DNA of 25,566 bases from a virus (taxonomy: Duplodnaviria; Heunggongvirae; Uroviricota; Caudoviricetes): IMG/VR virus record IMGVR_UViG_3300042340_000144; one strand, 5' to 3'. The position numbers were made by a program, and so were the translations under genes. Every line of letters starts with the position of its first letter. Position 1 is the stretch's first letter. Shown one piece after another: positions 1,183 to 23,046 of this stretch. Below the pieces are notes generated by a model that saw only the letters and a list, made by a program, of their open reading frames with translations, was not told the DNA's origin and searched no databases.

Positions 1183-1761
1183 CTACTTACTGTTTTTATC
1201 AACAATATATGTAACATCTTCAATAACAAAAGAAATAAGCTTTCTCAATTCAACTGTTCTAATGTTACTACCATCAATACCATCTGGTAATTCCATATCA
1301 TATACAAGCATAATACCTAAACCATTATTAGGAGTATATACAGTGCCTGTGATAGTTCTAAGACTGCCATCATGCTTAATAAATGTGGCAGTAATGTCCT
1401 CATTCTTTTTTAGTTCACTAATAAGTTTAATAGAGTCCCATACATTTAAACTAATTGTTTTAACTTCATCATCTTCTTGTTCATCAAATTCAACTGTATT
1501 TAAATAATAAGTTCTAAAAGTACCATTATCACTATAACTAAAATAACTATTATCAGCTAAAATAATCATTGCATCAGATACAATATTCTGAGTAAGGTTA
1601 GGTCTAAATGTAATAGGTCCAACATCAATAGTTGCATGTCTAATTCTCAATTCATTCTTAATATCAAGAGTAGTAGTAGAACCCTTTTGTTTAATTAATC
1701 TAATTGCTGTAGCTAAGACTAAATCATTATAAAACTCTGTTGTTGCGTCATTATTATTCAT
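1183..1761 (-). CDS. N-terminal HTH-like domain plus C-terminal phage WYL_2/SH3-like domain
   Basis: C-terminal ITATFIKHDGSLRTITGT...VYDME...IRTVELRKLISF matches the phage F-x-K-x-DG-x-x-R SH3-like pattern. AGGA Shine-Dalgarno upstream. Confidence 0.55.
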   Translation of the reverse strand: MNNNDATTEFYNDLVLATAIRLIKQKGSTTTLDIKNELRIRHATIDVGPITFRPNLTQNIVSDAMIILADNSYFSYSDNGTFRTYYLNTVEFDEQEDDEVKTISLNVWDSIKLISELKKNEDITATFIKHDGSLRTITGTVYTPNNGLGIMLVYDMELPDGIDGSNIRTVELRKLISFVIEDVTYIVDKNSK

Positions 1762-1780: not shown

Positions 1781-2965
1781 TTACAACCAAACTATATATT
1801 CTAAGTAACATTGTTCTTCTCTATAAACAATGATTTCACTGTTTAATAAACCATTACCAGCTTCAACAAAAGTACTATCATATCCTCTTTGCTTTAACTG
1901 GTCATAAGTTAATTCAAAAGAATTACCTCTATACCAGCCCTTATAAACATAAGGATTACCAACAAATACTTTATATATTAGTAACACCTTATCATTATCA
2001 TAACCAGTATATCCTAATGATTTACTAGTAACTTCAGAGAAGTAGTTTCCATCTCCGTAAATTTTCCCAGAAAAGTTAAAGTTACCACTGGGTCTTATCT
2101 TTAAACCTTGTTCAATAATAGGTATAACAGAACTACATCTAGTCCCATGTATTAAATGTCTATGACCTTTTGTAATGTCTTTATTATTACTTTCTAAGTA
2201 GTTATAATACTTTTGTTTATGTTTATCAATATCAACTTTAAACAGGCCTTTAATCCTACTTCCAAGTTGTTTAGTTATATAACTAATATCATTTGGATAG
2301 TCTTTAATAACTTGTATAGATATATTTAAAGTAGATGCAATAGTATTAACAATAGGTTGTTTATCACAAGTCTCAATATCACTATTAACATCTTCTATAA
2401 CTTGTGATGCTAAAGCATCTAACTTATCTTGTTCTTGTTCTACAAGTTTATTTAAAGATATATTAGGCAATAAGTAATCTTGTACTTTCCTCATATATCT
2501 AGGAATAACTGTATATAACTTTAACAGTAAATCATTAACATATTGTATATCATATTCCTCACCAACTTGGGCCAAATCATTAATATAAAGTTGAGCCTGT
2601 TCTAGCTGTCTTCTAGTAACTTGAGTAGCTTTAACACTATAAGTAGTAGATACAAGACCGTCTCTATAATCCATCATCTTCTTTAAAAAGATATCATATA
2701 GTTCTTGTGTATATACAATGTTATTAGTTACATTATTAATATCCTTAACAACTGCTACAAACTCAGTAACATCTTTATAACCCTTCTTTAACTTACTTTT
2801 AATTAAAGAATTCCATTGATGTAAGGGTTTAGTTATCTCAATACATGAACTATCAACTCTACCATATTTAACCTGTATACATTCACTTGTTTCTTGCATC
2901 TCATAGTACTTATTATGATTATCTTCAGTTGTCATAACAAGTCTACAAAATCTATAATTAGTCAT
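1781..2965 (-). CDS. Poly(ADP-ribose) polymerase-like protein (WGR + helical regulatory + catalytic domains)
   Basis: WGR-like NHNKYYEMQ...VKYGRV. Regulatory-domain-like LEQAQLYINDL...LYTVIP...EQEQDKLDAL. Catalytic H-Y-E triad in LIHGT, GKIYGDGNYF...SKSLGY and NSEIIVY. Confidence 0.9.
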   Translation of the reverse strand: MTNYRFCRLVMTTEDNHNKYYEMQETSECIQVKYGRVDSSCIEITKPLHQWNSLIKSKLKKGYKDVTEFVAVVKDINNVTNNIVYTQELYDIFLKKMMDYRDGLVSTTYSVKATQVTRRQLEQAQLYINDLAQVGEEYDIQYVNDLLLKLYTVIPRYMRKVQDYLLPNISLNKLVEQEQDKLDALASQVIEDVNSDIETCDKQPIVNTIASTLNISIQVIKDYPNDISYITKQLGSRIKGLFKVDIDKHKQKYYNYLESNNKDITKGHRHLIHGTRCSSVIPIIEQGLKIRPSGNFNFSGKIYGDGNYFSEVTSKSLGYTGYDNDKVLLIYKVFVGNPYVYKGWYRGNSFELTYDQLKQRGYDSTFVEAGNGLLNSEIIVYREEQCYLEYIVWL

Positions 2966-2982
2966 ATTAATACACTTTATAA

Positions 2983-3375
2983 TTATTTAAATAAGCTTGT
3001 ATTAACATTACAAACATTAGTTGCTAATACAAAAGATAAAGGATGTAATTCCTGTTCTGTTACACTCTTTAAAATATCTACAGCAGTATAAAAATCAGCA
3101 CTATTATACTTACTAAAATTCAAAGGATCTAGCCAAATAATATTAACTTTAATATTAACACTATCTTCTATAAAACTAAACTCTTTACTCTTCCAACTAT
3201 TAATTGTAGTTACATCATTTAAACAATCTTTTAATACATCCCAAGTATTTTCAAAGTCATCTGAAATCTTTAATAGGCCCTTAATTTGAGCCAAAAAAGA
3301 AGCTTTATCAAATGTCTTTGCACCATCCAATACAAGATAAATGTTATTAGAATCTTCTGTATTTATCCCTGTCAT
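2983..3375 (-). CDS. Barstar-family (RNase inhibitor fold) protein
   Basis: YLVLDGAKTFDKASFLAQIKGLLKISDDFENTWDVLKDCLND follows the barstar pattern. Start moved to ATG 3375 (MTGINT), which removes the overlap with the upstream ORF. Confidence 0.7.
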   Translation of the reverse strand: MTGINTEDSNNIYLVLDGAKTFDKASFLAQIKGLLKISDDFENTWDVLKDCLNDVTTINSWKSKEFSFIEDSVNIKVNIIWLDPLNFSKYNSADFYTAVDILKSVTEQELHPLSFVLATNVCNVNTSLFK

Positions 3376-3376
3376 A

Positions 3377-3589
3377 TTATGCCTTTTGTTTCTTTTTCCT
3401 AATATAGGTTCTAGTTTCAATAAGATCCAGTTGTTGCAATTCTGCAATAGCTTTATTAGCTTCATTAGGAGTAAGCCTACAACTTACAGCTTGATTAATT
3501 ACATCAATATACTTGCTTGTACTATAAAGACTGTAGTATAAAATAGCAGCCTCTTTACTTAGTAATTGATCAGTTAGTGTTATTCCCAA
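3377..3589 (-). CDS. Small hypothetical protein, possible winged-HTH
   Basis: 70 aa with TTG start (uncertain). LTPNEANKAIAELQQLDLI resembles a wHTH recognition helix. Confidence 0.4.
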   Translation of the reverse strand: MGITLTDQLLSKEAAILYYSLYSTSKYIDVINQAVSCRLTPNEANKAIAELQQLDLIETRTYIRKKKQKA

Positions 3590-4462: not shown

Positions 4463-5431
4463 TTATTTAATTTCCTCATATTTAAATATTAGTCCGTTAT
4501 GTTCTTTATTTTTATGTATGTATTTATGAAGAGTTCTATAATCTAAATTATATTTATCCCCACAAGGTTTTAATCCATAAACACTATCAATTTTATTATC
4601 AGTATTTACTTCAAAAACATTTATTAATTTCATTCCTTTATTAATAGGAATTTTAAAGTCTTTTATATAACTAATATAAATTCTATTTTCAATTAAACTT
4701 CCCTTCTTTATATATGTTGTTGCAAAGCCTTTAGGTATATTATAAAAATCAGCAGCCTCTGTTATACTTTTATGCTCAGAAAGAAAAATACCCTCTTTAT
4801 TAAAAACATAACAATGTACCTTATTGCCTGCCTGATTTGGGCTATAAGAATCTAATCTATCTTCTAGATCTTTACTAAACATATAACCATTTCTTTGTCT
4901 AGCATTTTTACTTTTACAGCATCTAACTATATCTGAATTATAAATATTAAGATCTCTTCCTGCTTCACTTAAAGAGTTATATATTTTAATTAAATCTCCT
5001 TCTAAGTTATAACAAGCTACTTTCTTTTTTGTATTATTACCCATTATTTTATGTTCAGTAATTTCTGGAGTTATTCTAAAATTAAATTTTCCTCCTTCAG
5101 TTAAATTATATCCTACATCTTTATTACTAGAATCAAATAAGGAAATATAATGTATTTCTCTATCATTTAGTTCATCTTGAGTACATAGCTCTAAAACACT
5201 AAATATAACTTGTTCTAGTGAATATTTTCTAATAGCTTTTATAACAAATCTATTATCTTTTTTATATAATCCAATATAAGACTTTATTCTTTTAGTGATA
5301 TTTTTAGACTGTCCAATATATACTTTTCCATTTGGGAATAATAATTTATATATTAAAGGCTTATTTTCTAAACTTTTAAATGCATAATCAAATTGATTAT
5401 TTATCTTTAGATCTGATAGTTTCCAGTTCAT
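4463..5431 (-). CDS. Free-standing GIY-YIG homing endonuclease with NUMOD1-type DNA-binding repeats
   Basis: LIYKL...KVYIGQS...R...LNDREIHYI...GYNLTEGG, followed by repeats such as KKVACYNLEGDLIKIYNSLSEAGRDL. Confidence 0.9.
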   Translation of the reverse strand: MNWKLSDLKINNQFDYAFKSLENKPLIYKLLFPNGKVYIGQSKNITKRIKSYIGLYKKDNRFVIKAIRKYSLEQVIFSVLELCTQDELNDREIHYISLFDSSNKDVGYNLTEGGKFNFRITPEITEHKIMGNNTKKKVACYNLEGDLIKIYNSLSEAGRDLNIYNSDIVRCCKSKNARQRNGYMFSKDLEDRLDSYSPNQAGNKVHCYVFNKEGIFLSEHKSITEAADFYNIPKGFATTYIKKGSLIENRIYISYIKDFKIPINKGMKLINVFEVNTDNKIDSVYGLKPCGDKYNLDYRTLHKYIHKNKEHNGLIFKYEEIK

Positions 5432-6766: not shown

Positions 6767-6899
6767 GTCTCTTGTAATATCTTATGTTTATAACTGATGA
6801 AATTCAACACTTTATCTCTAATAATGATCCCAACACATGTAAAAGATTTTATACAAAATTATGTAAGTTATTGTTTAAGAATAAGATACTACAAGAGAC
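6767..6899. repeat. 19-bp inverted repeat (1 mismatch) whose left arm covers the HNH start codon
   Basis: GTCTCTTGTAATATCTTAT (6767-6785) versus ATAAGATACTACAAGAGAC (6881-6899). Confidence 0.75.
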
Positions 6900-7119
6900 T
6901 AATTATAGATGTATATACTGTAATGGTTTAGCTACAACATTAGATCATATTATAGCTGGTGGTCAGACTCTTCAAAGTAACTTAGTTGGTGCTTGTGAAA
7001 CATGTAATAAGAGTAAAGGAACTACTTATTGGAGAGTATGGTTTAAAGCTCAACCTAGTTACAATGAAGCTAGTGAGAAGTATATTTGCAGTAAGTTAAA
7101 TACTAATAAAATACTTTAA
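6784..7119 (+). CDS. HNH endonuclease (McrA-like, Zn-binding)
   Basis: CIYC...TLDHII...NLVGACETCNKSKG. Antisense to its neighbours. Confidence 0.88.
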   Translation: MFITDEIQHFISNNDPNTCKRFYTKLCKLLFKNKILQETNYRCIYCNGLATTLDHIIAGGQTLQSNLVGACETCNKSKGTTYWRVWFKAQPSYNEASEKYICSKLNTNKIL

Positions 7120-8114
7120 TTCTTATCCACAAAATCAACAACACCCAGCCCTTTACAATGAGGACAATCAACTAAAGGCTTGTTTATTTCTGTTATTAAA
7201 TCATTCAAATATTTATCAATGTTATCCTTTAAATCCTGCAAAGAATTACCTTTAAAAGGAGTTACAACTGTGTGTTTCTCATAAGGTTTAGGGCAACATT
7301 CAAACACAGTAACAGTTCTTTTATCTCTATACTTAGTAACAGTTTTAGGTTTAGTTTTCCTCTTACTAAAGAGATTAGATTCAGTAAATTGATATGACTG
7401 AGGAGCCTCAAGCATTATATTCTTTGTAACTCTTAAACAGAAGTTATAGTCAGTTAGAGTGGCCCATTTACCATTAATATGTTGCTTAATATAAGATCTA
7501 ATAATACCATATGTATGCTCAGCAGATAAGCAACAAGGAGTGTTATCAATAAACATGTCAGGCGTTGTTAGTTCATTAATTAGTTGATATTCAACTGACT
7601 TATCTGTTATTCTAATTGTTCTTGTATCATATGATCCAGCTTCTAAACAAGCATAATTAAAACTACTTACATCATTAGGTTCAACTAAATCACAATCATA
7701 CTTAGCTATTACATCTAAATGAAACTTAATGTCTTCTAACTGTGCAGGTTCTACATCCCAATTTTCTTTGTATAAACTAAACACATCTTCAAACTCAGGT
7801 CTAGCAACCCAACCTTCTCCATCATTAGGATAGTATGCAAATTCATCCCTACTATATACTTTAGGTAAATCAAAAGTAACAGTTTCTTTTAATTCATATC
7901 TATGATTAATAGTCTTTACATAACCTTGCTGACTAATAGTAGTTGGCACCTTATCTAACTTATACCAATCCTTCTTACAAGATGGCTGAGCTTTTACACC
8001 ATCAAAGAATAGATTAGCTACATAATGACTATGACTAACATAAACATAGGACTCTGCATTTGCTATAAAACAACCATCATTAAACACCACAACTTTAAAC
8101 TTAATAGCGCTCAT
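7116..8114 (-). CDS. Hypothetical phage protein with C-terminal CxxCxGxG motif
   Basis: 332 aa ending CPHCKGLG. Confidence 0.75.
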   Translation of the reverse strand: MSAIKFKVVVFNDGCFIANAESYVYVSHSHYVANLFFDGVKAQPSCKKDWYKLDKVPTTISQQGYVKTINHRYELKETVTFDLPKVYSRDEFAYYPNDGEGWVARPEFEDVFSLYKENWDVEPAQLEDIKFHLDVIAKYDCDLVEPNDVSSFNYACLEAGSYDTRTIRITDKSVEYQLINELTTPDMFIDNTPCCLSAEHTYGIIRSYIKQHINGKWATLTDYNFCLRVTKNIMLEAPQSYQFTESNLFSKRKTKPKTVTKYRDKRTVTVFECCPKPYEKHTVVTPFKGNSLQDLKDNIDKYLNDLITEINKPLVDCPHCKGLGVVDFVDKN

Positions 8115-9622: not shown

Positions 9623-10158
9623 GAGCCATATTCAACTACCTCTGTATAAACAAACTCATCACACATCTTATTAGCAACTCTAGTAGCTACAAACTTATTA
9701 TCAAATAATATTACGTTATCTGTAATCTCATCTGTATAAAACTCTCTAGATACCTCTTGGCCCAACATAACAGTTATAACTTGTATTGCATATTTAGTCT
9801 TTTGACTAATAGCCAATTCTATGTTATTAGCTTTACAAAACTGTTTTATTAAGTGTTGTTGATCTCTAAAACCACTCTTATCATAGGTTGGGTCCCAAGT
9901 ACCATCAAGGGCCATTTGAGCATCACTATATAAACTAGTTAAGAGATTAATTAAAGTATCTTTATTAAATAAACATGCTGATATAAATTCATTCTCACTA
10001 CCTTCTGAGTTGTCATCACTATCAACCCATTCTATTGCTTTACAAGCTTCAGCTACTAAGTCTAAATGCTGTTTAAATGCTAATCTTTCAGGAGTATTTA
10101 ATTCAAACTCAGCATCTTGTATATGTGAATATAGGTAATTCATTGAGCCGCCAGACAT
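9619..10158 (-). CDS. Hypothetical phage protein
   Basis: 179 aa. The MSGGSMNYLY...AIEWVDS N-terminus resembles a recurrent phage hypothetical family (from recall). Confidence 0.7.
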   Translation of the reverse strand: MSGGSMNYLYSHIQDAEFELNTPERLAFKQHLDLVAEACKAIEWVDSDDNSEGSENEFISACLFNKDTLINLLTSLYSDAQMALDGTWDPTYDKSGFRDQQHLIKQFCKANNIELAISQKTKYAIQVITVMLGQEVSREFYTDEITDNVILFDNKFVATRVANKMCDEFVYTEVVEYGS

Positions 10159-10162
10159 GCTA

Positions 10163-10372
10163 TTAATCCTCTTCTCTGTTATAGGTATCTTTTAAGTATT
10201 CATTAACTACATCTTCTAACTTAATAATTGGTTTTTTATTAGAACCACCCTCAGCAAGTAATAGATGCTTTATAATCTTGCCACATCTTTTCCATTTTCT
10301 ACCAGCTTTGTGACTATTAGGTTTTTTAGATAAGGGCATAATATTATTTTCTAAATAGTATAATAATATCAA
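10163..10372 (-). CDS. Small basic hypothetical protein
   Basis: 69 aa. The start may be the internal Met (MPLSKK). Confidence 0.45.
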   Translation of the reverse strand: MILLYYLENNIMPLSKKPNSHKAGRKWKRCGKIIKHLLLAEGGSNKKPIIKLEDVVNEYLKDTYNREED

Positions 10373-10544
10373 TTATAAAATCTAAAAGCTTAGAAATTAT
10401 ATAAAAAGGTGCAAGAATCCATAAAACAAAAAATAAACTCCATATAAAATATAGCTCTTTCTTATTTTTTGCATATTTATTTGATATTAAATAACTAATA
10501 AATATGTATAAGGAGAAACCAACAAGCACTAATAAAAAATCCAT
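10344..10544 (-). CDS. Small two-TM membrane protein
   Basis: 66 aa with two hydrophobic segments. Its start overlaps the ligase stop. Confidence 0.6.
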   Translation of the reverse strand: MDFLLVLVGFSLYIFISYLISNKYAKNKKELYFIWSLFFVLWILAPFYIISKLLDFIIDIIILFRK

Positions 10545-11749
10545 TAAATCTTTCTATCTAACTCTTTAACCTTACCAAATCTAGGAGCACCATCTTCTGT
10601 TAGTTCAAAGTACTTAATAGTTGTTGGTTTGCCAATATATAAATCCTTATTCTTTAACCATTCAGCACATTGTTCATATGTACCAACAATGTCTGCATTA
10701 AAGCCATCAAACACTGCAATTCTTGCTTTGCCACTCCAATTACCTTCCCCTTCTAACATGTCAACAAGTGTATATTCAGAGTCTATCCATTCCTTTCTTT
10801 TAAGTAAATACTTAGTTCTTTTATTAATATAAGAAGTGTTAAACTTAATCATTTGACCCTCATAACCCTCTTCTAAACATTGTTTATAATGTTTATCAAT
10901 AGTAGTTAAATCATGTGTATTAGTTTCTAATTGTTCTACTAAAGTTATATAAGGTCTAAAGAACAACCCTTTATACTTCCATTCTAAAAGTTGTTTATAT
11001 CTATCTTTATAGACATTATCACTTATATAATCATAAACATAAAAGTTAATTAATTTAGAGTTTAGTTTATCTACTAACTTACTATCTTTTGGCTGCTTTC
11101 TATTATATAGAGTATTTAATTCTTTATCAGTATTATAATCTCTTCTAACAATTGACATAATATTGTTAAAGCCAATATCCTCATTATATAACTCACCATG
11201 TAATATTACATTTGGATAATCTCTAAAAAAACCCATTAAGTTTAGCGATTCAAGTATGTGATCACAAGACTTAATTACTTCGCCAGTTCTAGTAAACAAA
11301 CCATCTTTAGTTATTAAACAACAACTACCATCATACTTCTTACTTAGAAACACAACTTGTGGTACTTCTTTTGCCAACTTATCCTTATAATCTTTCCAAT
11401 CATAAGCTAACATTGGCTTAATATAAGTTTGTTTATCTACATCATCAATAGACTCAAAGTAACCTTCTTTTAACTTTTTACTATAGTTATTATCTACTTC
11501 ATATTTAGCTTGTTCTGGTTCTAATCTTTGGTTAGCTTTACCTATGTTTTTAGGCTTTGCAGTAGTCCAATCACTTACTTGTAGCTTACCTTCTAGTTGT
11601 CCTAAAACACTCCTATACTTATTTTGTAGCAACTGTTGACCCCATATTTGAATGGCACCAGTACTAGTTCTTTTATATAGAAACTTAATAATATCAACAT
11701 CAATGTTGTAATCTTTAAGTGTTTGTAAATCCCTAATTTGAATATTCAT
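10544..11749 (-). CDS. ATP-dependent DNA ligase
   Basis: KPMLA, motif I SKKYDG, LHGELY, FYVYD, EGQMIK, LLKRK, and an OB-domain-like C-terminus (GAPRF). Confidence 0.92.
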   Translation of the reverse strand: MNIQIRDLQTLKDYNIDVDIIKFLYKRTSTGAIQIWGQQLLQNKYRSVLGQLEGKLQVSDWTTAKPKNIGKANQRLEPEQAKYEVDNNYSKKLKEGYFESIDDVDKQTYIKPMLAYDWKDYKDKLAKEVPQVVFLSKKYDGSCCLITKDGLFTRTGEVIKSCDHILESLNLMGFFRDYPNVILHGELYNEDIGFNNIMSIVRRDYNTDKELNTLYNRKQPKDSKLVDKLNSKLINFYVYDYISDNVYKDRYKQLLEWKYKGLFFRPYITLVEQLETNTHDLTTIDKHYKQCLEEGYEGQMIKFNTSYINKRTKYLLKRKEWIDSEYTLVDMLEGEGNWSGKARIAVFDGFNADIVGTYEQCAEWLKNKDLYIGKPTTIKYFELTEDGAPRFGKVKELDRKI

Positions 11750-13575: not shown

Positions 13576-14091
13576 TTAAAGTTCTTTTCTTCTTTGATTT
13601 AATATATCTTCTAAAAGTACAGGAGTATAATTTATTTGTTCTACAGATACATTTATATATCTTCTATCAGAAAGACAGTTAGAATGAAGGTGACCTGAAA
13701 CATTTATCCAGCCTTCTTTTAAGCATTCAGAATGAATAGGTATATGAGTTAGTATAACCTTTAAACCTGGAAATGCTCTAGCTCCACATACTTTATCAAA
13801 GCCAGCTTCCAAGTATAACCTAGTATCAAATATGTCATGATTTCCAGATACCAAGCGCTTATGACCATTAAGTTGTTTTACTAACTCTAAATACTCCTTC
13901 TTAATAACTACATCACCTAGATGATATACATGATCTTCTGGTTTAACCGTGTTATTCCAATTAGTAATCATAGTATTGTTTAACTCTTCTACAGTGTTAA
14001 ATGGTCTTAGTTTATTACCTTCACTATCTGTCCACTTTAAACTATTTTCATGACCAAAATGAGTGTCACTAATTACATATATCTTAACCAT
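13576..14091 (-). CDS. Calcineurin-like metallophosphoesterase
   Basis: SDTHFGH, HLGDV, SGNHD, THIP, GHLH. AGGA Shine-Dalgarno. Confidence 0.92.
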   Translation of the reverse strand: MVKIYVISDTHFGHENSLKWTDSEGNKLRPFNTVEELNNTMITNWNNTVKPEDHVYHLGDVVIKKEYLELVKQLNGHKRLVSGNHDIFDTRLYLEAGFDKVCGARAFPGLKVILTHIPIHSECLKEGWINVSGHLHSNCLSDRRYINVSVEQINYTPVLLEDILNQRRKEL

Positions 14092-14160: not shown

Positions 14161-15327
14161 TTATAATACATGAGCAAAGGATAAAAACTTATTATTAAAC
14201 TTTGATAATGAATAATACAGAGTTTCTTTTAACAAATATAAAGTAATTGGCTCTTCAGATGTAAGTTTTTGTTTACTCTCTAAAGAAGTATATTGATAAT
14301 TAACAGTAATACTAAGTTTGTTCTTGTTAATGATTTTAACATTAAGATTAGTATAAGCTAGATCAAAATAAACATCTTCTGCTTTATTAATATCCTCATT
14401 TATTAGTGCCAATTTTTCAACAAAAGTATTATTAAACAATGTATACATGTCACCATTTTTAAACAGCACTTTATCCTTCTTAACAGATATAGAATATGTA
14501 TCACAATCATCTTCAACTTGATTATTATGCTCATCACAAACATAGAATTCATCATATAAATTAAACTCAATGTTTAACATATTAATAAGTTCTTCTACGT
14601 TGGTATCGCTAAACAAGTTGGTAGTTTTAATAATTTGAAGAGTGTTATCAAGAGACAAAACAGGAATACCAACAATAGTATCAATCAAATCTTCTTTGTC
14701 TTCTCTAGTAGATAACTTATAAACAAGTTGTCTTACTTCAACTTCTTCTAAGGAGCCAAAAGTCTTTCTCCACAATACTCTAGACAATCTATCAATGAGA
14801 GGATTACTAAATTTGTTATTGGCCTTCTCATTACCAATAAGTATAAACAATTGTTTGTTGTTAGTAGAACCATCTAACCACTCTAATAAAGCAACACTAG
14901 TCTCATCCTCTAACTTCTTTTCATACTCATCAATGAATATAACAAAGTTGTTGAATACATCACTACCAATAACATCTTTCCAAGCTGGCTTATTAATAAT
15001 GTTTAGATCTTGTATATACAAAATAGGTAAACCACTATCAAGTGCTAACTTATGGGCTCTTTTAGTTTTGCCACTACCTTTTAAACCTAAATACAAAACA
15101 CCTAAACTTTTAGTACTATTGTTAAATGATTTAAGTACATAATCCTCAAATTTGTCTAACAAATAATACTCATCTAAGTATTTAAAGTCATTAGTTCTAG
15201 TTAAATATATACCTCTCATATCACTATATTTAGGTATATAAACACCAATAGGAACAGAAGATACAGTATGAACCGCAGAATTAAAATCAATACTATTATC
15301 TGAATTAATGTAAGTTTGTAATGTCAT
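14161..15327 (-). CDS. AAA+ ATPase
   Basis: Walker A GLKGSGKT, Walker B FVIFIDE and LIDRLSR. The start abuts the Hen1 stop (TAAATG). Confidence 0.88.
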   Translation of the reverse strand: MTLQTYINSDNSIDFNSAVHTVSSVPIGVYIPKYSDMRGIYLTRTNDFKYLDEYYLLDKFEDYVLKSFNNSTKSLGVLYLGLKGSGKTKRAHKLALDSGLPILYIQDLNIINKPAWKDVIGSDVFNNFVIFIDEYEKKLEDETSVALLEWLDGSTNNKQLFILIGNEKANNKFSNPLIDRLSRVLWRKTFGSLEEVEVRQLVYKLSTREDKEDLIDTIVGIPVLSLDNTLQIIKTTNLFSDTNVEELINMLNIEFNLYDEFYVCDEHNNQVEDDCDTYSISVKKDKVLFKNGDMYTLFNNTFVEKLALINEDINKAEDVYFDLAYTNLNVKIINKNKLSITVNYQYTSLESKQKLTSEEPITLYLLKETLYYSLSKFNNKFLSFAHVL

Positions 15328-16527
15328 TTATAAATCCTTAAATTCTATATTTTTATATAATGTCATAGGGCAGTTATTAACTGAATCACCCCAATTAATA
15401 CTATCTCCTGGTAATGTATTAAATTCATTTTGTGTAAATTCATATAGATGATCTTCGTATCTAACATCATTTGGCCCTAAATTAAAATACATATTAAAGT
15501 CTTTATTTGGAGTACTAATAAGTATTTGTTTAACATGCTTATTTAATACTAATGTTTCTAGCAATAACATTGCTACATCTTTTTCAATATGTTCTATAAA
15601 CTCTATTAAAAGCACCGTTGTAGGCTCTGTTAGTTGTTCTAATGCAGTATTCCAATTACTATAAAAAGAAGCTTCTACACCTAAATACTCAGTCTTAGAT
15701 TTAGCTTTTGCTAATACATTCTCATCAACATCAATACCAATGTATTTAATAGCTTTACTAACTTTAATATACTTACCAGGACCACAGCCAATGTCTATTA
15801 CACTATTTCTATACTTAATATGAGTAGACACAAACGCAAATCTTTGCTGTTCATTTCTACCAATATTACTTAGGTTAATGCTCTCATTGTTTAATAATGG
15901 CACCACTTTTTTAGACATATTATCTTCAAGAATGCCTCTAAATCTATGCCTTACTATAAAAGGAATATTGTCATTCTTATTAATAATATTTGCATAAACA
16001 TTAACTTGATCAAGAGTTAGATAACTTACATTATCTTTAATAAGTTGCATAAATAGGATTAAAGCTGTATATCTTAAAGCATCAATTAAACTACCATTAT
16101 TAGTAACATTTAACTGTACTAAGTTACAGTTATCAGCTATTAAATAATATGTAATGTTAAAGTTTTCTGTATTAAAAATACTTAAATGCTTTACATCAAC
16201 ATCTAAACATTCAATGGTTATAGTATTTAAAGAAGGTCCTTTTTCATATTTATTATTACTATCTTTTTTAATACAATCAAATAAGGTTGTTAGTACTGTT
16301 AAAGCTGATTCAGCAGAGCAATAACCTCTATATACTAAATAATTACCTTCTTTCTCAAATGAGTCTTGACCAACTCCTTCTTCAAAGATAGCCATATATG
16401 TTAAAGGTGTAACATACTTACCTACCACAAAACCTTTTCTACAATCTCTAATAAGAAGTCCACTATTAGGGTTCTTATTAAGAATGTAACTTAAATTAGA
16501 ATCACTAGAATTAACTTTAATTATCAT
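15328..16527 (-). CDS. hen1: Hen1-type RNA 3'-terminal 2'-O-methyltransferase
   Basis: SAM motif VIDIGCGPG, metal motif IEFIEH, STPNKDFN and RYEDHLYEFT. The N-terminal NLSYILNKNP resembles the bacterial Hen1 ligase-activating domain. Confidence 0.85.
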   Translation of the reverse strand: MIIKVNSSDSNLSYILNKNPNSGLLIRDCRKGFVVGKYVTPLTYMAIFEEGVGQDSFEKEGNYLVYRGYCSAESALTVLTTLFDCIKKDSNNKYEKGPSLNTITIECLDVDVKHLSIFNTENFNITYYLIADNCNLVQLNVTNNGSLIDALRYTALILFMQLIKDNVSYLTLDQVNVYANIINKNDNIPFIVRHRFRGILEDNMSKKVVPLLNNESINLSNIGRNEQQRFAFVSTHIKYRNSVIDIGCGPGKYIKVSKAIKYIGIDVDENVLAKAKSKTEYLGVEASFYSNWNTALEQLTEPTTVLLIEFIEHIEKDVAMLLLETLVLNKHVKQILISTPNKDFNMYFNLGPNDVRYEDHLYEFTQNEFNTLPGDSINWGDSVNNCPMTLYKNIEFKDL

Positions 16528-16896: not shown

Positions 16897-19359
16897 TTAT
16901 AATCTTGGATCTAGTCCTTGTTCTTTCTTCAATTCAAACATGAGTTTAATTAAAGTATTAGCATACTCTTTATTAGTATCATTAAAGTCAGATGAGTGAA
17001 TGTCTAATAAAGAATTACCTAATTGCCATTCATTAATACTCACTTTAAGTTTACCTTTAATACTTTTTTTATCAATAAACTTATGTAGTATAGAAGTATA
17101 ATCATGACCATATACTAGTCTTAAATAATCTACATTTCTAACTTTAATGTAAGGGGCTTGTCCTTCAACATTGTAGTAGGGTTTAACAACAACACCTTCT
17201 AAATGACTGTATAGATTTTGTACCCTAATAGCTTCTGTTAAGTCATTAACATTAACTACATGTAAGGGTGTATTTAATAAACTTAATAACTCATAGTTAT
17301 TAAACTTGTTAAACTCACTATTACTATAAAGAATCTTATCTTCAGACTCAACTTTAAGTATGTTAAAAGGCATAAAATAGGGTACTTCATTAGAACTATA
17401 TTTATCTAGTTCTAAACCAAATGTATTTAGATTATTTAAATTATTAGTGTTCTTCCAATGATTAAAATTATTAACTTGTTTATTAGGTAAACTAAATTTA
17501 TTAATATAATCATCACTAACTTTAAAGGCTTCTAAATCATTATAAAAACCATGTTTAATCATAGTTTCAATGTGTAACTTATGACTATAATAATAAGCTT
17601 CAAAAGTGTTTTGAATTAATCCTTTACCAAGATATGACCAGGGCATTAACTCACAATCTAACAACACTGAAGTATATGATCCTAATGAATTAATCCAAGC
17701 TATCAACTCATCAGATACACTATTTTCTAACACATCTATAGCAGCATCTAATTCAGGTGTTTGTTTAAGTTTAAAACCATTTCTAGTAAATACTTTATAA
17801 CCCTCCCTAGATACTTCTACTTGTGCTCTGCTTCCCATATATTTAGGCTGTATTAGTACTTGAGTTTGACCCATAGCTGCATAATAGGATAAAACAGTTT
17901 TAATGTCTTCTAAAGTACTTTCAGTCTTATCAGCAGGACACATAGTACCACTAATATAAGGCACTTTATTTCTGATAAAACTATTTAATTTTCTAGTATC
18001 CTCATCATCCAACTTAACTTCTAAATCCTCTACTGGATACTTAAACTTAGTAATATGTTCAAGTTGTTTAAGATTATCATCTAATAAAGACTTAACAGTA
18101 ATAAACTTTTTACTACTAACATTATAACCAGTTAATACATTACCATAGCCAACACCAGTATCTAAACCAATAGAATATTTAGTTTTGATATGCCTGTCAA
18201 AAGTTAAATGACCATACAAGTGAAGAGGCCAACAACTATTATAATGTTTATCATTATAAATACTATTAATTAGATCACACTTTTCTTCAGTCTTATAATA
18301 CAAGTTAGTCATCTTATCAAGACTAGTTAACAAGTACTTACTCTTACAGGGTGCATGAGTAACAATAAATCCTTGACCTCTAATACTAGAATAACTTCTA
18401 TTATAGAGTTCAATAAACTTATCTCTATAACTAAGAGAAATATTTACTAAAAATCTAGAATTAAAGTATTTATTATTCTCCATAAAAGAACTAAATTCAA
18501 TAGCTTCTAGTTCTTCTTGAGGAATGTTTTCAATCTTACTTATATACTTAAATAAATTCTCCTCGTGGTTACCTTTAAGAAGCAAGATTTGAGGATTAGC
18601 AAGTAAATAATCAATAATTCTTTCATTGTAATGTGCTGATTTATTAAGCATTGGATCTTTAACATCAATCCAATCACCAACTAAAATTGGCACATTATGT
18701 TCATCTTTAATGTTATTAATAAGCTGCTTTAACTCATTAACACAACCATGAACATCACCAATAACAGTATAATTATTACCTTCTACAATTAAGTTATTCT
18801 TATTTTCAATATAAGTAACATTAACACTATCAATCCTTTCAGTTATAGTTATAACTTTATGATAATCACTTCTTCTAAGATTACTTAATACATGCTTCTT
18901 AAGCTTATCAATATGCTTAGTAATAACATATTTATCACCACCATCATTAGCAAACCAATCTTGTCTATTCTTATAATCAAATAAAATACAAACAACCTTA
19001 TAATTATGATCTCTACAAATATTTATAATATCAGTTCTAAATTGATCATTTAAACCAGTACTATCAATGATTACATGAGGTACATTTACAGGATAACTGA
19101 TGTAATTCCTAAGTTTAGCATAAAGGAGATTAAAAGCTTGTTGTGAAACTTCCAACATCCTAGAACTGTACTTATCTGCATCAATGTCAGATATTAAATC
19201 TCTTCTAATACCATCACTTGATAATACCCTACAATCAACATTAGACTTAAGTAATTGGTAATGTAATTGTTTAGCTAATGTGGATTTCCCAGCATTAGAG
19301 GGTGCAATTAACAGATAAACAGTATAATCTTCGCATACAATATTAAATGACTTGGTCAT
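16897..19359 (-). CDS. pnkp: Polynucleotide kinase-phosphatase-ligase (bacterial Pnkp architecture)
   Basis: Kinase APSNAGKST. Phosphoesterase GDVHGC, GDWID, GNHE, YGH, LDTG. Ligase QPKYMGSR, DCELMPW, EGVVVKP, IKVR and C-terminal DPRL. Confidence 0.92.
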   Translation of the reverse strand: MTKSFNIVCEDYTVYLLIAPSNAGKSTLAKQLHYQLLKSNVDCRVLSSDGIRRDLISDIDADKYSSRMLEVSQQAFNLLYAKLRNYISYPVNVPHVIIDSTGLNDQFRTDIINICRDHNYKVVCILFDYKNRQDWFANDGGDKYVITKHIDKLKKHVLSNLRRSDYHKVITITERIDSVNVTYIENKNNLIVEGNNYTVIGDVHGCVNELKQLINNIKDEHNVPILVGDWIDVKDPMLNKSAHYNERIIDYLLANPQILLLKGNHEENLFKYISKIENIPQEELEAIEFSSFMENNKYFNSRFLVNISLSYRDKFIELYNRSYSSIRGQGFIVTHAPCKSKYLLTSLDKMTNLYYKTEEKCDLINSIYNDKHYNSCWPLHLYGHLTFDRHIKTKYSIGLDTGVGYGNVLTGYNVSSKKFITVKSLLDDNLKQLEHITKFKYPVEDLEVKLDDEDTRKLNSFIRNKVPYISGTMCPADKTESTLEDIKTVLSYYAAMGQTQVLIQPKYMGSRAQVEVSREGYKVFTRNGFKLKQTPELDAAIDVLENSVSDELIAWINSLGSYTSVLLDCELMPWSYLGKGLIQNTFEAYYYSHKLHIETMIKHGFYNDLEAFKVSDDYINKFSLPNKQVNNFNHWKNTNNLNNLNTFGLELDKYSSNEVPYFMPFNILKVESEDKILYSNSEFNKFNNYELLSLLNTPLHVVNVNDLTEAIRVQNLYSHLEGVVVKPYYNVEGQAPYIKVRNVDYLRLVYGHDYTSILHKFIDKKSIKGKLKVSINEWQLGNSLLDIHSSDFNDTNKEYANTLIKLMFELKKEQGLDPRL

Positions 19360-19930: not shown

Positions 19931-20296
19931 CTAATTAGATTGTAGTTTTAGCAATTCATCTTCTTTGAATACAGCAGTGTATAAAGTTCTACCTTCATCA
20001 TCACAGAATTCAACTTCATATACATTATTATCCTTACCAAGTAGTTCAACCACAGTACCAATATGTCCTGCTTTAATACCACTAATAACAACAACTGTAT
20101 CAGTGATTTCATACTTACTTGTGACTTCAAATAGATCCATAATCTTATTAACAATAGGAATATCAAACCCATCTTTAACAATTTGAAGTTGGCCAAAGTT
20201 AGCCATATTCTGATACTTTTGGCCCTTTTCTAAACCAAATGCTTTATAGTCTTCTTTGACTACAACCCAACAATCTTTACTAAATCCAATAGTCAT
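19931..20296 (-). CDS. DUF4926-like SH3-fold protein, paralogue 2
   Basis: GHIGTVVELL...YEVEFCDDEGRT. Confidence 0.7.
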   Translation of the reverse strand: MTIGFSKDCWVVVKEDYKAFGLEKGQKYQNMANFGQLQIVKDGFDIPIVNKIMDLFEVTSKYEITDTVVVISGIKAGHIGTVVELLGKDNNVYEVEFCDDEGRTLYTAVFKEDELLKLQSN

Positions 20297-20338: not shown

Positions 20339-20743
20339 TTAGTTAAAGCGTAATTTTAATAAATAAGTTTCTTCAATAGTATCTTGATATAAAGTTTTAC
20401 CCTCTTCATCGCAGAACTCTACTTTATAGTTAGCATAAGTATGATCTTGATTAGGAAGTACTTCAACTATTGTACCAACCTGCCCAATAGGTATAATTTT
20501 ACCATTAGCATCAGTCCAATCACCAACTGTAATTGTTACTACATCAGTAATCTCATACTTACTACTAAGTTCAAAGAAGTCTTTATTTAGACCTAGTATT
20601 TCACCAGCATAGTAAATTTGAATCTGATTATTCCAACTCCAACCAGCAGTGCTATGAACCTTGTACTTTTGGCCCAATTTAAGCCAATAACCATCTTCTT
20701 TTACAACTTTAACTATGCAATCTTTTACTATTTGTTTATCCAT
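20339..20743 (-). CDS. DUF4926-like SH3-fold protein, paralogue 1
   Basis: GQVGTIVEVL...YKVEFCDEEGKT. Shares GQKY and SKYEITD with the neighbour. Confidence 0.7.
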   Translation of the reverse strand: MDKQIVKDCIVKVVKEDGYWLKLGQKYKVHSTAGWSWNNQIQIYYAGEILGLNKDFFELSSKYEITDVVTITVGDWTDANGKIIPIGQVGTIVEVLPNQDHTYANYKVEFCDEEGKTLYQDTIEETYLLKLRFN

Positions 20744-20829: not shown

Positions 20830-23046
20830 TTAAAACTTAACTCTTACAGTCCTTTTAAAGCTACCCTCAACTTTAACAATAAGAGTTTCTTTACTATCAT
20901 CAGTAAAGCCTAGACCTGCTAGTTGTTTAGTAGTTGGTTCTAACTTATCAGTCATACCATAAATCTCTAACACCTTTCTATGTGCCAGAAGCTCACCATT
21001 CAAGTTCTCAATGTGAAAAGATCTCATTGGACTATCTGAATGACATCCTTCTAAGAAGAAGAAATAGTGCTTATTACCAATCTTATTATCTCCCCAATAA
21101 TTAGGAGATAGTGAGATTAGATTTACTTTGTGGAATTGATTAGAATCAAGACCCCACATAGTATTACTAGTAGCACCAACAGGTTCTAAGCGATGTTCAA
21201 TTGACCATTGACCATCACTTAGAGTAACAGTAGCAACATCAACCCATTCTTTATGACCAGTAGCAGGATAAATGTATTCATACAACTCGCCATTAAAAGC
21301 AATCTCAGCTTTACCTCTACCCCAACTATGTCTCTTATTCCAGTTGTGAATCATACATCTATATTTACCATCTTTTAATTTATTCATAGATGGAAATGTA
21401 ATATTCTCAACAGGGATATAGCCAGCAGGAGCAGCGCTTGTATAATCTACATCTTGCACACCACCACTTGTAGGATCATTTCTTCTATTCCAACCAACTC
21501 TATTACCACTAGTACTATAAGTGTCACAAAATTTACTAGTACCATAAGTGTCACAAAATTTACTAGTTGGTCCACTATTACCAGGCATAAACACATGCAA
21601 ATCCATAAGACTATCATTAGGTTCTAGTTCATTCCAACTATGTGTAAATCTAAAGACACCATCAACTCTACCACCTTTACTAATAACTGCTTGTGTTAGA
21701 TTACTCTTACCAGCTAAGTTACCATTATAAGTCCAACTGAACATATTATCATTCCACTTAAAAGGATTTTTACAAGTAGGATCAATTGCAGTTGTTAGAG
21801 TTACTAGATTATTGCCAAAGCCATTTTCTAAGAACACTTGAATAGACTTACTATTAGGTAAGATGTCTTTAATAAAAGTTTGTATATCAACAGTTTGGAT
21901 CTCATCAAACTCTGCTTTCTTATGTCTACTTAAAGTGCCACCATTACTACTCTTTACATTAGCAAATAGATTAGAAGCAGGAGCCTTCTTCTTACTAATA
22001 TTAGTATGAATCCTTTCATTAATATCAATATCATTTAAAGTTGCAAAGCGTCTTTTAAATGAATCTTCATAACCTAATTCAACAATCTTCTTAGCAGCAT
22101 TATTAATTTGTGACTGAGTAATTGGTGCTTTTGCTTTAGCATAATTAGCAGGATCAACTCTCTTATTAAACTCTTTACAAACAGTATTAATGTCTTTACC
22201 TTGAGCAAGATCAATACAAGTAGTGCCAATTAACTCATTAGCAAAACCAGCAAAAGGAATATCACTAAACCTCTTCCAAGTCCAGTTATTTTTGCTTAAA
22301 GTAGAACCTTGTAACTCATCATATTCTTGTTTAATATTAATAAACTCATCTACTTTATACTTGTACAAATCAGCTCTTAATAAAGAACCTTGTGCCATCA
22401 ATTCACTAACAACTTGTAGTGTTTCTAGTGGAATGTTTAAACCCTTAACAAACACTTGATGAGTAGCATTCCTTTTACTTAGATAAGTGCCAATAGACTC
22501 ACTCCCAGTTAATACATATTGCTTAGGCAAATTAACATAAAAGTGATGGAAGGTATATACTTTATTTGTAGTTACCACACCATACTTAGCAACTTCTTCT
22601 GGTGTATAAACCTTAGTAGATAATTTATAACCAAGTTGATAAAGCTCAGCATTCTTTTTAATCTTTTCATAAGGTTGTTTTACTAAATTGTTATATTCAA
22701 TAGCAAATACACTAGTAATTGGTGCTACTTTTAAAGCATTGTTTACAGCAGTAACAGAATTATAATAAGAGCTACCTTCAACATCAATATCAAACATTGT
22801 AACAATGTTATTATCATCATCTACAGCAACAATATTGCCATAAGTTTTAATAAAGTGCTTATCCCTATTACAATTGTTACTACTACTATTAGGATCTCTA
22901 AAGATAGGATTATCTTGTGGTGCAAATGAATTTAAATATAAATCCCACAAAGTATCACCACTAACAGATGATACAAATAGTTTTCCATTCTTACACATTA
23001 GAGCAAATTGCTCTTTAATTAAACTTGCAAATTCTTCAAATAACAT
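20830..23046 (-). CDS. Large conserved phage protein of unknown function
   Basis: 738 aa. LWDLYLNSF, VDPANY, FSWTYNG, DLHV...DVD...PVENI resemble a widespread phage hypothetical family (from recall). Confidence 0.8.
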   Translation of the reverse strand: MLFEEFASLIKEQFALMCKNGKLFVSSVSGDTLWDLYLNSFAPQDNPIFRDPNSSSNNCNRDKHFIKTYGNIVAVDDDNNIVTMFDIDVEGSSYYNSVTAVNNALKVAPITSVFAIEYNNLVKQPYEKIKKNAELYQLGYKLSTKVYTPEEVAKYGVVTTNKVYTFHHFYVNLPKQYVLTGSESIGTYLSKRNATHQVFVKGLNIPLETLQVVSELMAQGSLLRADLYKYKVDEFINIKQEYDELQGSTLSKNNWTWKRFSDIPFAGFANELIGTTCIDLAQGKDINTVCKEFNKRVDPANYAKAKAPITQSQINNAAKKIVELGYEDSFKRRFATLNDIDINERIHTNISKKKAPASNLFANVKSSNGGTLSRHKKAEFDEIQTVDIQTFIKDILPNSKSIQVFLENGFGNNLVTLTTAIDPTCKNPFKWNDNMFSWTYNGNLAGKSNLTQAVISKGGRVDGVFRFTHSWNELEPNDSLMDLHVFMPGNSGPTSKFCDTYGTSKFCDTYSTSGNRVGWNRRNDPTSGGVQDVDYTSAAPAGYIPVENITFPSMNKLKDGKYRCMIHNWNKRHSWGRGKAEIAFNGELYEYIYPATGHKEWVDVATVTLSDGQWSIEHRLEPVGATSNTMWGLDSNQFHKVNLISLSPNYWGDNKIGNKHYFFFLEGCHSDSPMRSFHIENLNGELLAHRKVLEIYGMTDKLEPTTKQLAGLGFTDDSKETLIVKVEGSFKRTVRVKF
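21508..21567. repeat. In-frame 27-bp tandem duplication
   Basis: ACTAGTAC(T/C)ATAAGTGTCACAAAATTT x2 plus ACTAGT, encoding TSKFCDTYG TSKFCDTYS. Confidence 0.9.

Follow-up and report, generated by a model that had tools for sequence, protein, structure and literature searches.

The question raised by this locus is whether a phage carries a complete poly(ADP-ribose) polymerase, or PARP, and, if so, what such an enzyme would do during infection. The locus lies in a stretch of 25,566 nucleotides (IMG/VR record IMGVR_UViG_3300042340_000144, Caudoviricetes; hereafter the window), in which a sequence-only reading had described the open reading frame (ORF) at 1781-2965 as a PARP with WGR, regulatory and catalytic domains, an intact H-Y-E triad and a catalytic Glu in NSEIIVY. 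This description held: the ORF is exactly as given, the Glu is E377, and profile searches and a predicted fold both indicate that the ORF is a real three-domain PARP (WGR, helical regulatory and catalytic). Our overall interpretation, to which we give a probability of roughly 0.55, is that the ORF encodes a catalytically competent, minimal ADP-ribosyltransferase (ART) of the PARP1/2/3 type with WGR, helical regulatory (HD) and ART domains in that order (WGR-HD-ART), and that it is apparently co-transcribed with a small winged-helix protein, the two closing a run of early, repair and counter-defence genes carried by a large phage with a Bacteroidota-type host.

The catalytic domain was the most readily identified part of the protein. 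The gene runs on the minus strand from ATG to stop (1781-2965 including the stop codon; 394 aa), and its ART domain (residues ~214-394; 1784-2326, minus strand) was matched by the Pfam PARP family PF00644 at residues 222-392 (61.1 bits, above the cut-off of 26.7; E=1.3e-16). Besides K315 and Y319, the domain carries the triad residues H273 (in LIHGTR), Y308 (in GNYF) and E377 (in NSEIIVY, residues 375-381), which were aligned to the His, Tyr and Glu of PARP1 and PARP2 by both phmmer and profile alignments. The PHROG 23333 profile matched the protein over nearly its full length (E=1.7e-61; residues 9-394 aligned with positions 8-382 of the 383-position profile), and the ART domain of the structural model described below also matched the catalytic domains of PARP1, PARP2, PARP3 and PARP4 in Foldseek. 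Some gene callers choose the internal Met11 as the start (P0001). The start codon at 2965 is preferable, because 90% or more of the homologues keep M1 and L9, and the strand formed by residues 6-13 belongs to the fold.

The two domains that precede the catalytic domain were recognised by family-specific profiles and by fold. The WGR domain occupies residues ~5-67 (2765-2953, minus strand; N18, K19, Y21, Y34-G35-R36 and G62-Y63), and the PARP_reg-like HD, assigned from the alignment and the model helices, residues ~88-213 (2327-2704, minus strand). A phmmer search of Protein Data Bank sequences aligned residues 112-342 continuously to a PARP1 fragment comprising the helical and catalytic domains (E ~1e-9). 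A family profile built from 99 homologous sequences (A1), which was also the basis of the AlphaFold2 model, matched human PARP2 in one stretch (E=7.7e-37) that ran from the NNNKYY motif of the WGR domain through the HD to the catalytic Glu. In this alignment the NNNKYY and (W/Y)GRVG motifs of the family fell on the WGR domain of PARP2, with N18-K19 on its NNNK motif and Y34-G35-R36 on its WGR motif; these two motifs contain the residues by which PARP2 contacts DNA ends and signals to its HD. The AlphaFold2 model was of high confidence (predicted local distance difference test score, pLDDT, 90.4; predicted template modelling score, pTM, 0.87). It placed a four-strand sheet (strands within 6-46) and a helix (48-60) in the WGR domain, the HD at residues 89-212 and the ART domain at 216-393. 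The best Foldseek matches of this model were PARP2 WGR-HD-ART (6x0l_P, E=3.9e-18) and PARP1 WGR-HD-ART (4dqy_C and 4opx_C, TM 0.69 on the query), which are the only solved chains that hold the three domains together.

Conservation was assessed across a set of 84 non-redundant PARPs (~30% pairwise identity) that was drawn from phage contigs and bacterial genomes and included the window PARP. Despite this divergence, the WGR residues N18, K19, Y21, G35, R36, G62 and Y63 were invariant in 84/84, and Y308, K315, Y319 and E377 were likewise conserved in all, H273 being present in 83 of the 84 and the NAD+-site residue S316 also kept. Within the HD, P155 was invariant and R156, E178, L182 and D183 nearly so, and the full HD was retained in every clade. 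This strong purifying conservation is the best available argument that the family consists of active, WGR-regulated enzymes, and it makes DNA-end sensing plausible.

A second gene, which the sequence-only reading had overlooked and which we refer to as the partner, starts 19 nucleotides after the PARP stop codon (1183-1761, minus strand; 192 aa). In its AlphaFold2 model (pLDDT 81 overall) the N-terminal part (residues ~2-95; 1477-1758, minus strand) forms a winged helix and the C-terminal half (residues ~100-190; 1192-1464, minus strand) a small beta-barrel. VIA-align related residues ~2-95 to winged helices, including those of DNA-bound AlkX/YcaQ, Zalpha, Fur and DpnI (Z 9.6-8.0), and Foldseek gave local TM values of 0.6-0.76 to BlaI, the cullin WHB domain and the KAT6A winged helix, with no match at E<=0.001 for the whole partner model. 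No Pfam family covers the protein. Its C-terminal half did not reach the cut-off of WYL_2 PF10902 (17.2 against 26.7 bits, E=0.0063), a weak similarity seen in 5 of 26 partner-family members. At 23 nucleotides past the partner stop codon, with an A-run on one side and a T-run on the other, lies a terminator-like hairpin (1125-1160), which, judging from its symmetry, would act on the minus strand; a consensus scan for terminators found 2 sites against 0.6 expected, and one for sigma-70-type promoters gave matches at chance level (46 found, 45 expected).

The association of the two genes is recurrent. In Cellulophaga phage phi17:2 the gene after PARP, gp030, encodes a homologue of the partner (BLASTP, E=1e-9), though tblastn of the partner against cultured phages gave no match. 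With an iterated hidden Markov model (HMM), the partner family was found to adjoin PARP on the same strand in 44 of 86 loci, usually 0-30 nucleotides downstream or with an overlap of a few bases, and sometimes directly upstream. When all ORFs on the same strand as PARP and no more than 3 kb from it were clustered without bias across 83 non-redundant loci, the winged-helix partner came first among neighbour families (38 loci). The family shares an N-domain of ~80 aa with the motif TTTLEIKNELR ... Q..VS ... DNGTYRTY, in which K35, Q58 and Y85 are invariant. The partner HMM, although built without bacterial sequences, also matched the gene right after the chromosomal PARPs of Cytophagales (Bernardetia, Flexibacter and metagenome-assembled genomes, MAGs) at E ~1e-20, and these matches covered only the N-terminal 75 residues. 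The N-domain is the constant element of the partner, and the C-terminal half varies between lineages. A literature search found no paper describing a PARP-linked winged-helix partner.

A maximum-likelihood tree showed that the type of neighbour follows PARP phylogeny, with 11 changes compared with 40.5 in shuffles. The window PARP falls in a well-supported clade of 21 members, in every one of which the partner is present. This clade lies within a 26-row clade (hereafter the window clade), likewise well supported, that also holds the PARPs of Cellulophaga phages phi17:2 and phi4:1 and throughout which the partner adjoins PARP.

Going beyond the architecture, conserved residues and gene linkage that we observed, we infer DNA dependence, targets and a role in infection by analogy with PARP2, PARP3 and HaPARP, the Herpetosiphon enzyme. 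The WGR domain would bind a nucleic-acid end or nick, and end binding would unfold or displace the autoinhibitory HD and thereby open the NAD+ site. The ART domain would then transfer ADP-ribose, as single units or chains. Candidate acceptors are the PARP itself, the winged-helix partner, other DNA-bound proteins and DNA ends, modified on protein carboxylates, other side chains or DNA terminal phosphates. The partner would most likely be a nucleic-acid-binding cofactor or a dedicated substrate that targets or reads the reaction.

Genes that could reverse such a reaction were found elsewhere in the family. Macrodomain genes were neighbours of PARP in 23 of the 83 loci. They characterise a sister PARP clade (20 rows) without the winged-helix partner, in which a macrodomain gene of 135-213 aa lies directly upstream of PARP (L047 5558-5983, L056 5526-5990, L071 5553-5990, L082 5548-5967 and, in a Clostridium MAG, L087 3540-3965, among others). 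The profile of this family matched human TARG1/OARD1 with E=3.5e-35; Pfam Macro gives these TARG1-like genes only low scores and misses some members. A TARG1-like gene also lies 1.5-3 kb upstream in four partner-type loci, and in one partner-type genome (99% complete) a TARG1-like gene overlooked by Pfam Macro was found elsewhere by the custom profile. The macrodomain family is not related to the partner (hhalign probability 0.2%). TARG1-like macrodomains are signs that the PARP family belongs to a real, reversible ADP-ribosylation system.

In one IMG/VR contig (L004) the PARP frame is split into 312 aa and 73 aa (9986-10924 and 10998-11219) with the macrodomain gene upstream intact; the split is due to a frameshift, a stop codon or faulty assembly. 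In Klebsiella phage FBKp34 a TARG1-like homologue annotated 'putative phosphatase' lies 2.4 kb upstream of PARP; the gene downstream of that PARP was considered as a partner homologue and rejected by comparison. In Microscillaceae and relatives (L088, L089, L093 and L098) the PARPs are ~765 aa long with a long N-terminal extension, and neither partner nor macrodomain was detected near them; they match the 764-aa Microscilla PARP of Garcia-Saura 2018 (PMC5966428).

The original description came with three conjectural roles, namely shielding of the phage's own breaks, disabling of host defence nucleases and draining of NAD+, and the neighbours bear on the last of these. The enzyme would then be mainly an NAD+ sink, acting as an abortive or toxin-like NADase or starving host NAD+-dependent enzymes, which we consider very improbable. 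PARP hyperactivation does deplete NAD+ in eukaryotes, but many host defences kill phage through NAD+ depletion, so a lytic phage would gain little from it. Moreover, transfer rather than hydrolysis is indicated by the conservation of acceptor-side residues and by the presence of the partner and the eraser, and no immunity-gene pattern was seen.

Several observations weigh against the overall interpretation. At the level of domain detection, the HMM search suggested by the sequence-only reading succeeded for the catalytic domain, as described above, and failed for the other two: Pfam WGR PF05406 remained below its cut-off (18.7 against 22 bits, E=0.0019), some homologues carrying a precomputed match to it, and Pfam PARP_reg PF02877 had no match in the 394-aa protein. 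The WGR domain is also shorter than those of PARP1 and PARP2, and the PARP2 insert after the helix is absent. At the active site, the loop leading up to the catalytic Tyr sets the window clade apart from every other clade and from PARP1/2: it reads GxMFGxGxYFA in the others and G300-K-I-Y-G-D-G-N-Y308-F-S-E in the window. Residue 302 has changed from Met to V, A or I in 26/26 members of the window clade, and F and A have been replaced by Y303 and S310. Residue 302 corresponds, by our numbering, to PARP1 M890, which lies on the acceptor side of the active site; the position that we equate with PARP1 Y986 is mostly N in the whole phage and bacterial set. Because several donor/acceptor-loop positions are changed, chain elongation and even the type of acceptor may differ in the window clade. 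Among the neighbours, about one-third of the loci show neither partner nor macrodomain, and the partner might be no more than a transcription factor. The window and its two closest relatives, the latter 51-59% complete, yielded no eraser. Finally, a literature search found no experimental study of any phage PARP.

Some of these objections have an answer. The lack of PARP_reg and WGR matches is confined to Pfam and is overturned by the phmmer alignment, the A1 profile and the model fold, which cover both domains. Garcia-Saura 2018 (PMC5966428) likewise reported that bacterial Clade 1 PARPs have no Pfam PARP_reg match though modelled structures show the helical domain. The negative results for erasers are weak, since the custom TARG1-like profile found a copy that Pfam Macro did not see. 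They include the absence of Pfam Macro and ARH matches in five related phage records and the absence of a Pfam PARG match in the same records, where the control was equally silent and the result therefore carries no information; HaPARP and the other active bacterial enzyme, CdPARP, have cognate PARGs according to the literature. As for the earlier statement that the Glu is needed for chain elongation, PARP3 has the H-Y-E triad in the literature, yet is treated as a mono-transferase; the triad is necessary, not sufficient, for poly(ADP-ribose) synthesis, and the product of the window enzyme may be mono- or poly(ADP-ribose).

The sub-threshold Pfam WGR match and the clade-specific changes near the active site could also mean that the protein has lost its activity and survives, as a relic or pseudo-enzyme, purely for binding. 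This is largely excluded because the catalytic and NAD+-site residues are conserved: the ORF is intact, the triad and K315, S316 and Y319 are kept, and the model is of high confidence.

The source of the window is consistent with a large phage. The window is AT-rich (~27% GC), and nearly all its genes lie on the minus strand. Its proteins are phage-like, as judged by PHROG matches, and include ThyX, a dUTPase, a ClpP-like protease, a GIY-YIG homing endonuclease and an HNH endonuclease. Cultured phages gave no nucleotide match to the whole window, so the phage is uncultured. Its closest cultured relatives are the Cellulophaga phages phi17:2 and phi4:1 (~145 kb), both by PARP and by a 738-aa protein (20830-23046) with 47% identity to its counterpart in these phages. 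Closer relatives were found among uncultured viral contigs of 107-128 kb (L001-L003), which have the gene order of the window and PARP identities of 68-81%.

The genes around the PARP-partner pair give the block its counter-defence and repair character. A strong homologue of the phage anti-Gabija protein Gad1 is encoded at 7116-8114 (minus strand; Pfam PF25705, E=4.3e-73; phrog_20113, E=7.7e-69) and marks the block as bearing counter-defence genes. Hen1 (15328-16527, minus strand; Hen1 N-domain, E=1.2e-26, and a methyltransferase) and an 820-aa Pnkp with kinase, phosphatase and ligase parts (16897-19359, minus strand; PNKP_ligase, E=3.7e-23) form a phage-encoded RNA-repair pair of the bacterial type, whose likely use is mending tRNAs cleaved by host anticodon nucleases. 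This pair is followed by an AAA ATPase (14161-15327) and a metallophosphatase (13576-14091). An ATP-dependent DNA ligase (10544-11749, minus strand) lies 7.6 kb from the PARP gene, and DNA ligase was the third commonest neighbour family overall (18 of the 83 loci). Just upstream of PARP is a gene for a barstar-like (barnase inhibitor) protein (2983-3465, minus strand; listed ORF 160 aa; PF01337, E=1e-7). Purely by association, the Gad1, Pnkp/Hen1, ligase and barstar-like neighbours suggest that the enzyme helps to protect phage nucleic acids from host attack or to repair them.

The barstar-like ORF is overlapped by a 70-aa ORF (3377-3589, minus strand) with 75% identity to its counterpart in L001, where that counterpart directly precedes a barstar-like gene of 135 aa. 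Because of this overlap with a conserved ORF and the layout in L001, the true start of the barstar-like gene is probably an internal Met near residue 30. In L001 the pair lies downstream of the PARP partner, so its position is not fixed relative to PARP, and the barstar-like gene was rejected as a constant PARP neighbour by comparison of loci. Homing-endonuclease-type genes were found in the nucleotide-metabolism block, namely a GIY-YIG/NUMOD1 gene next to ThyX (4463-5431, minus strand) and an HNH gene on the strand opposite to its neighbours (6784-7119, plus strand). GIY-YIG homing endonucleases occurred near PARP in 11 of the 83 loci and are presumably mobile insertions. Two tandem paralogues with DUF4926 (19931-20296 and 20339-20743, both minus strand; E=5e-13 and 2.3e-9), one with a KOW-like motif, were also observed.

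The position of the PARP gene among early-type genes would also suit an enzyme that needs no DNA and modifies host proteins, for instance RNA polymerase or components of translation, so as to take over the host much as T4 Alt, ModA and ModB do, with the WGR domain and HD serving only as scaffold. Iyer et al. give such a reading for jumbo-phage PARPs. We think it unlikely, since the invariant WGR residues and the full autoinhibitory HD in every clade argue for regulated activation, and the genes linked to PARP, rather than coding for head or injection proteins, code for a winged-helix protein, for a DNA ligase and for a TARG1-like eraser.

A further possibility is that the main acceptors of ADP-ribose are nucleic-acid ends and not proteins. 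By capping DNA or RNA ends of phage or host, the enzyme would shield phage genome ends and replication intermediates from host exonucleases or block host repair, and a TARG1-like macrodomain would uncap them. PARP1, PARP2 and PARP3 can modify terminal phosphates in vitro, and TARG1 removes phosphate-linked ADP-ribose from DNA and RNA ends as well as Glu/Asp-linked ADP-ribose. The PARP3 architecture, the invariance of the putative end-binding WGR residues, the TARG1-like nature of the recurrent eraser, the altered acceptor loop of the window clade, and the DNA ligase and Pnkp/Hen1 end-processing genes in the same block all fit this possibility. However, PARPs are known to modify nucleic acids only in eukaryotic systems or in vitro, TARG1-like enzymes act on proteins too, and the winged-helix partner is explained no better; we are doubtful that end capping is the main activity.

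A broader extension of the interpretation of the ORF as a regulated transferase with a winged-helix companion can be offered tentatively. The two proteins may constitute a dedicated two-component module, undescribed in the literature, that senses and marks nucleic-acid ends in many large phages and in Cytophagales and that TARG1-like macrodomains would make reversible in other clades. In the window clade the retuned acceptor loop would direct ADP-ribose to the partner or to DNA ends, and the effect might be to protect replicating phage DNA or to blunt those host defences that depend on ends, such as nucleases of the RecBCD-like or Gabija type.

Comparison with known systems places the window PARP between phage, bacterial and eukaryotic enzymes. 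The closest cultured homologue is the PARP of Cellulophaga phages phi17:2 (gp031) and phi4:1, with 34.7% identity over 96% of the window protein. It is annotated 'poly (ADP-ribose) polymerase', belongs to PHROG 23333 and has the same length class, the same WGR-HD-ART organisation and a downstream partner. In phi17:2 a DNA ligase gene (L005 9581-10993) directly follows the PARP-partner pair and a CCA-adding enzyme precedes it, whereas in the window the ligase is distant and the barstar-like gene precedes the pair. The PARPs of Klebsiella phage vB_KpM_FBKp34 (gp111), Xanthomonas phage XacN1, Stenotrophomonas phages CM1 and RAS14 and Aeromonas phage Aeh1 share the architecture at 22-25% identity; FBKp34, unlike the window, has no detectable partner.

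Human PARP2, PARP3 and the PARP1 core have the same three domains in the same order, with H-Y-E, NNNKYY and (W/Y)GR in common, and the acidic residues of helix alphaF (D180 and D183 in the window) are shared by PARP1, PARP2 and PARP3. Identity to the human enzymes is only ~17-20%, and the window protein lacks the N-terminal extension, zinc fingers and BRCT domain. Y34 replaces the Trp of the human WGR motif. In contrast to the human system, no HPF1 is present, and a winged-helix partner occurs instead.

Bacterial Clade 1 PARPs (Garcia-Saura 2018, PMC5966428) resemble the window protein in their compact WGR-(HD)-ART organisation and in having YGR for WGR. A genome scan for cellular relatives, which used a 29-row alignment, identified Cytophagales (Bernardetia, Microscilla and Flexibacter) and Clostridium MAGs as the nearest, at ~28-33% identity. 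The Cytophagales loci are similar to the window in that the downstream gene has the same winged-helix N-domain; they differ in that their partner is a 290-aa protein, whereas the C-terminal part of the window partner is a predicted beta-barrel.

The comparison made in the sequence-only reading with PARP3 and the Herpetosiphon enzyme is borne out by the literature. Two bacterial PARPs are active in vitro, HaPARP, which requires DNA and makes poly(ADP-ribose), and CdPARP, and HaPARP has the same domain architecture as human PARP3. The rarity that had been implied for such proteins in phages was not confirmed. PARP genes were listed for Aeromonas phage Aeh1 and Cellulophaga phage phi4:1 by Perina et al. 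2014, PARPs were noted in jumbo phages such as XacN1 by Iyer et al. 2021, and the PART/PARP family was counted among the most frequent viral ARTs by Iyer et al. 2022. The GenBank record of Klebsiella phage FBKp34 annotates gp111 with WGR, regulatory and catalytic domains. PHROG 23333, labelled 'polymerase', is the phage PARP family. An exhaustive phmmer search gave 1,423 cluster representatives at E<=0.001, of which 190 (50% identity clusters) had E<1e-30 and were nearly all 370-430 aa long. A single peptide pattern retrieved at least 193 IMG/VR contigs, many of 100-500 kb. Given these reviews, database notes and contigs, the WGR-HD-ART architecture is neither rare nor undescribed in phages.

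As one more intact phage PARP, the window alone leaves the picture of PARPs outside eukaryotes unchanged. Taken together with its relatives, however, it gives a testable handle, in that, in phages as in Cytophagales, no gene accompanies PARP more constantly than the small winged-helix gene, with TARG1-like erasers and DNA ligases next in frequency. The gene pair is shared by the cultured Cellulophaga phages phi4:1 and phi17:2 (gp031 and gp030), which are thus a possible experimental system.

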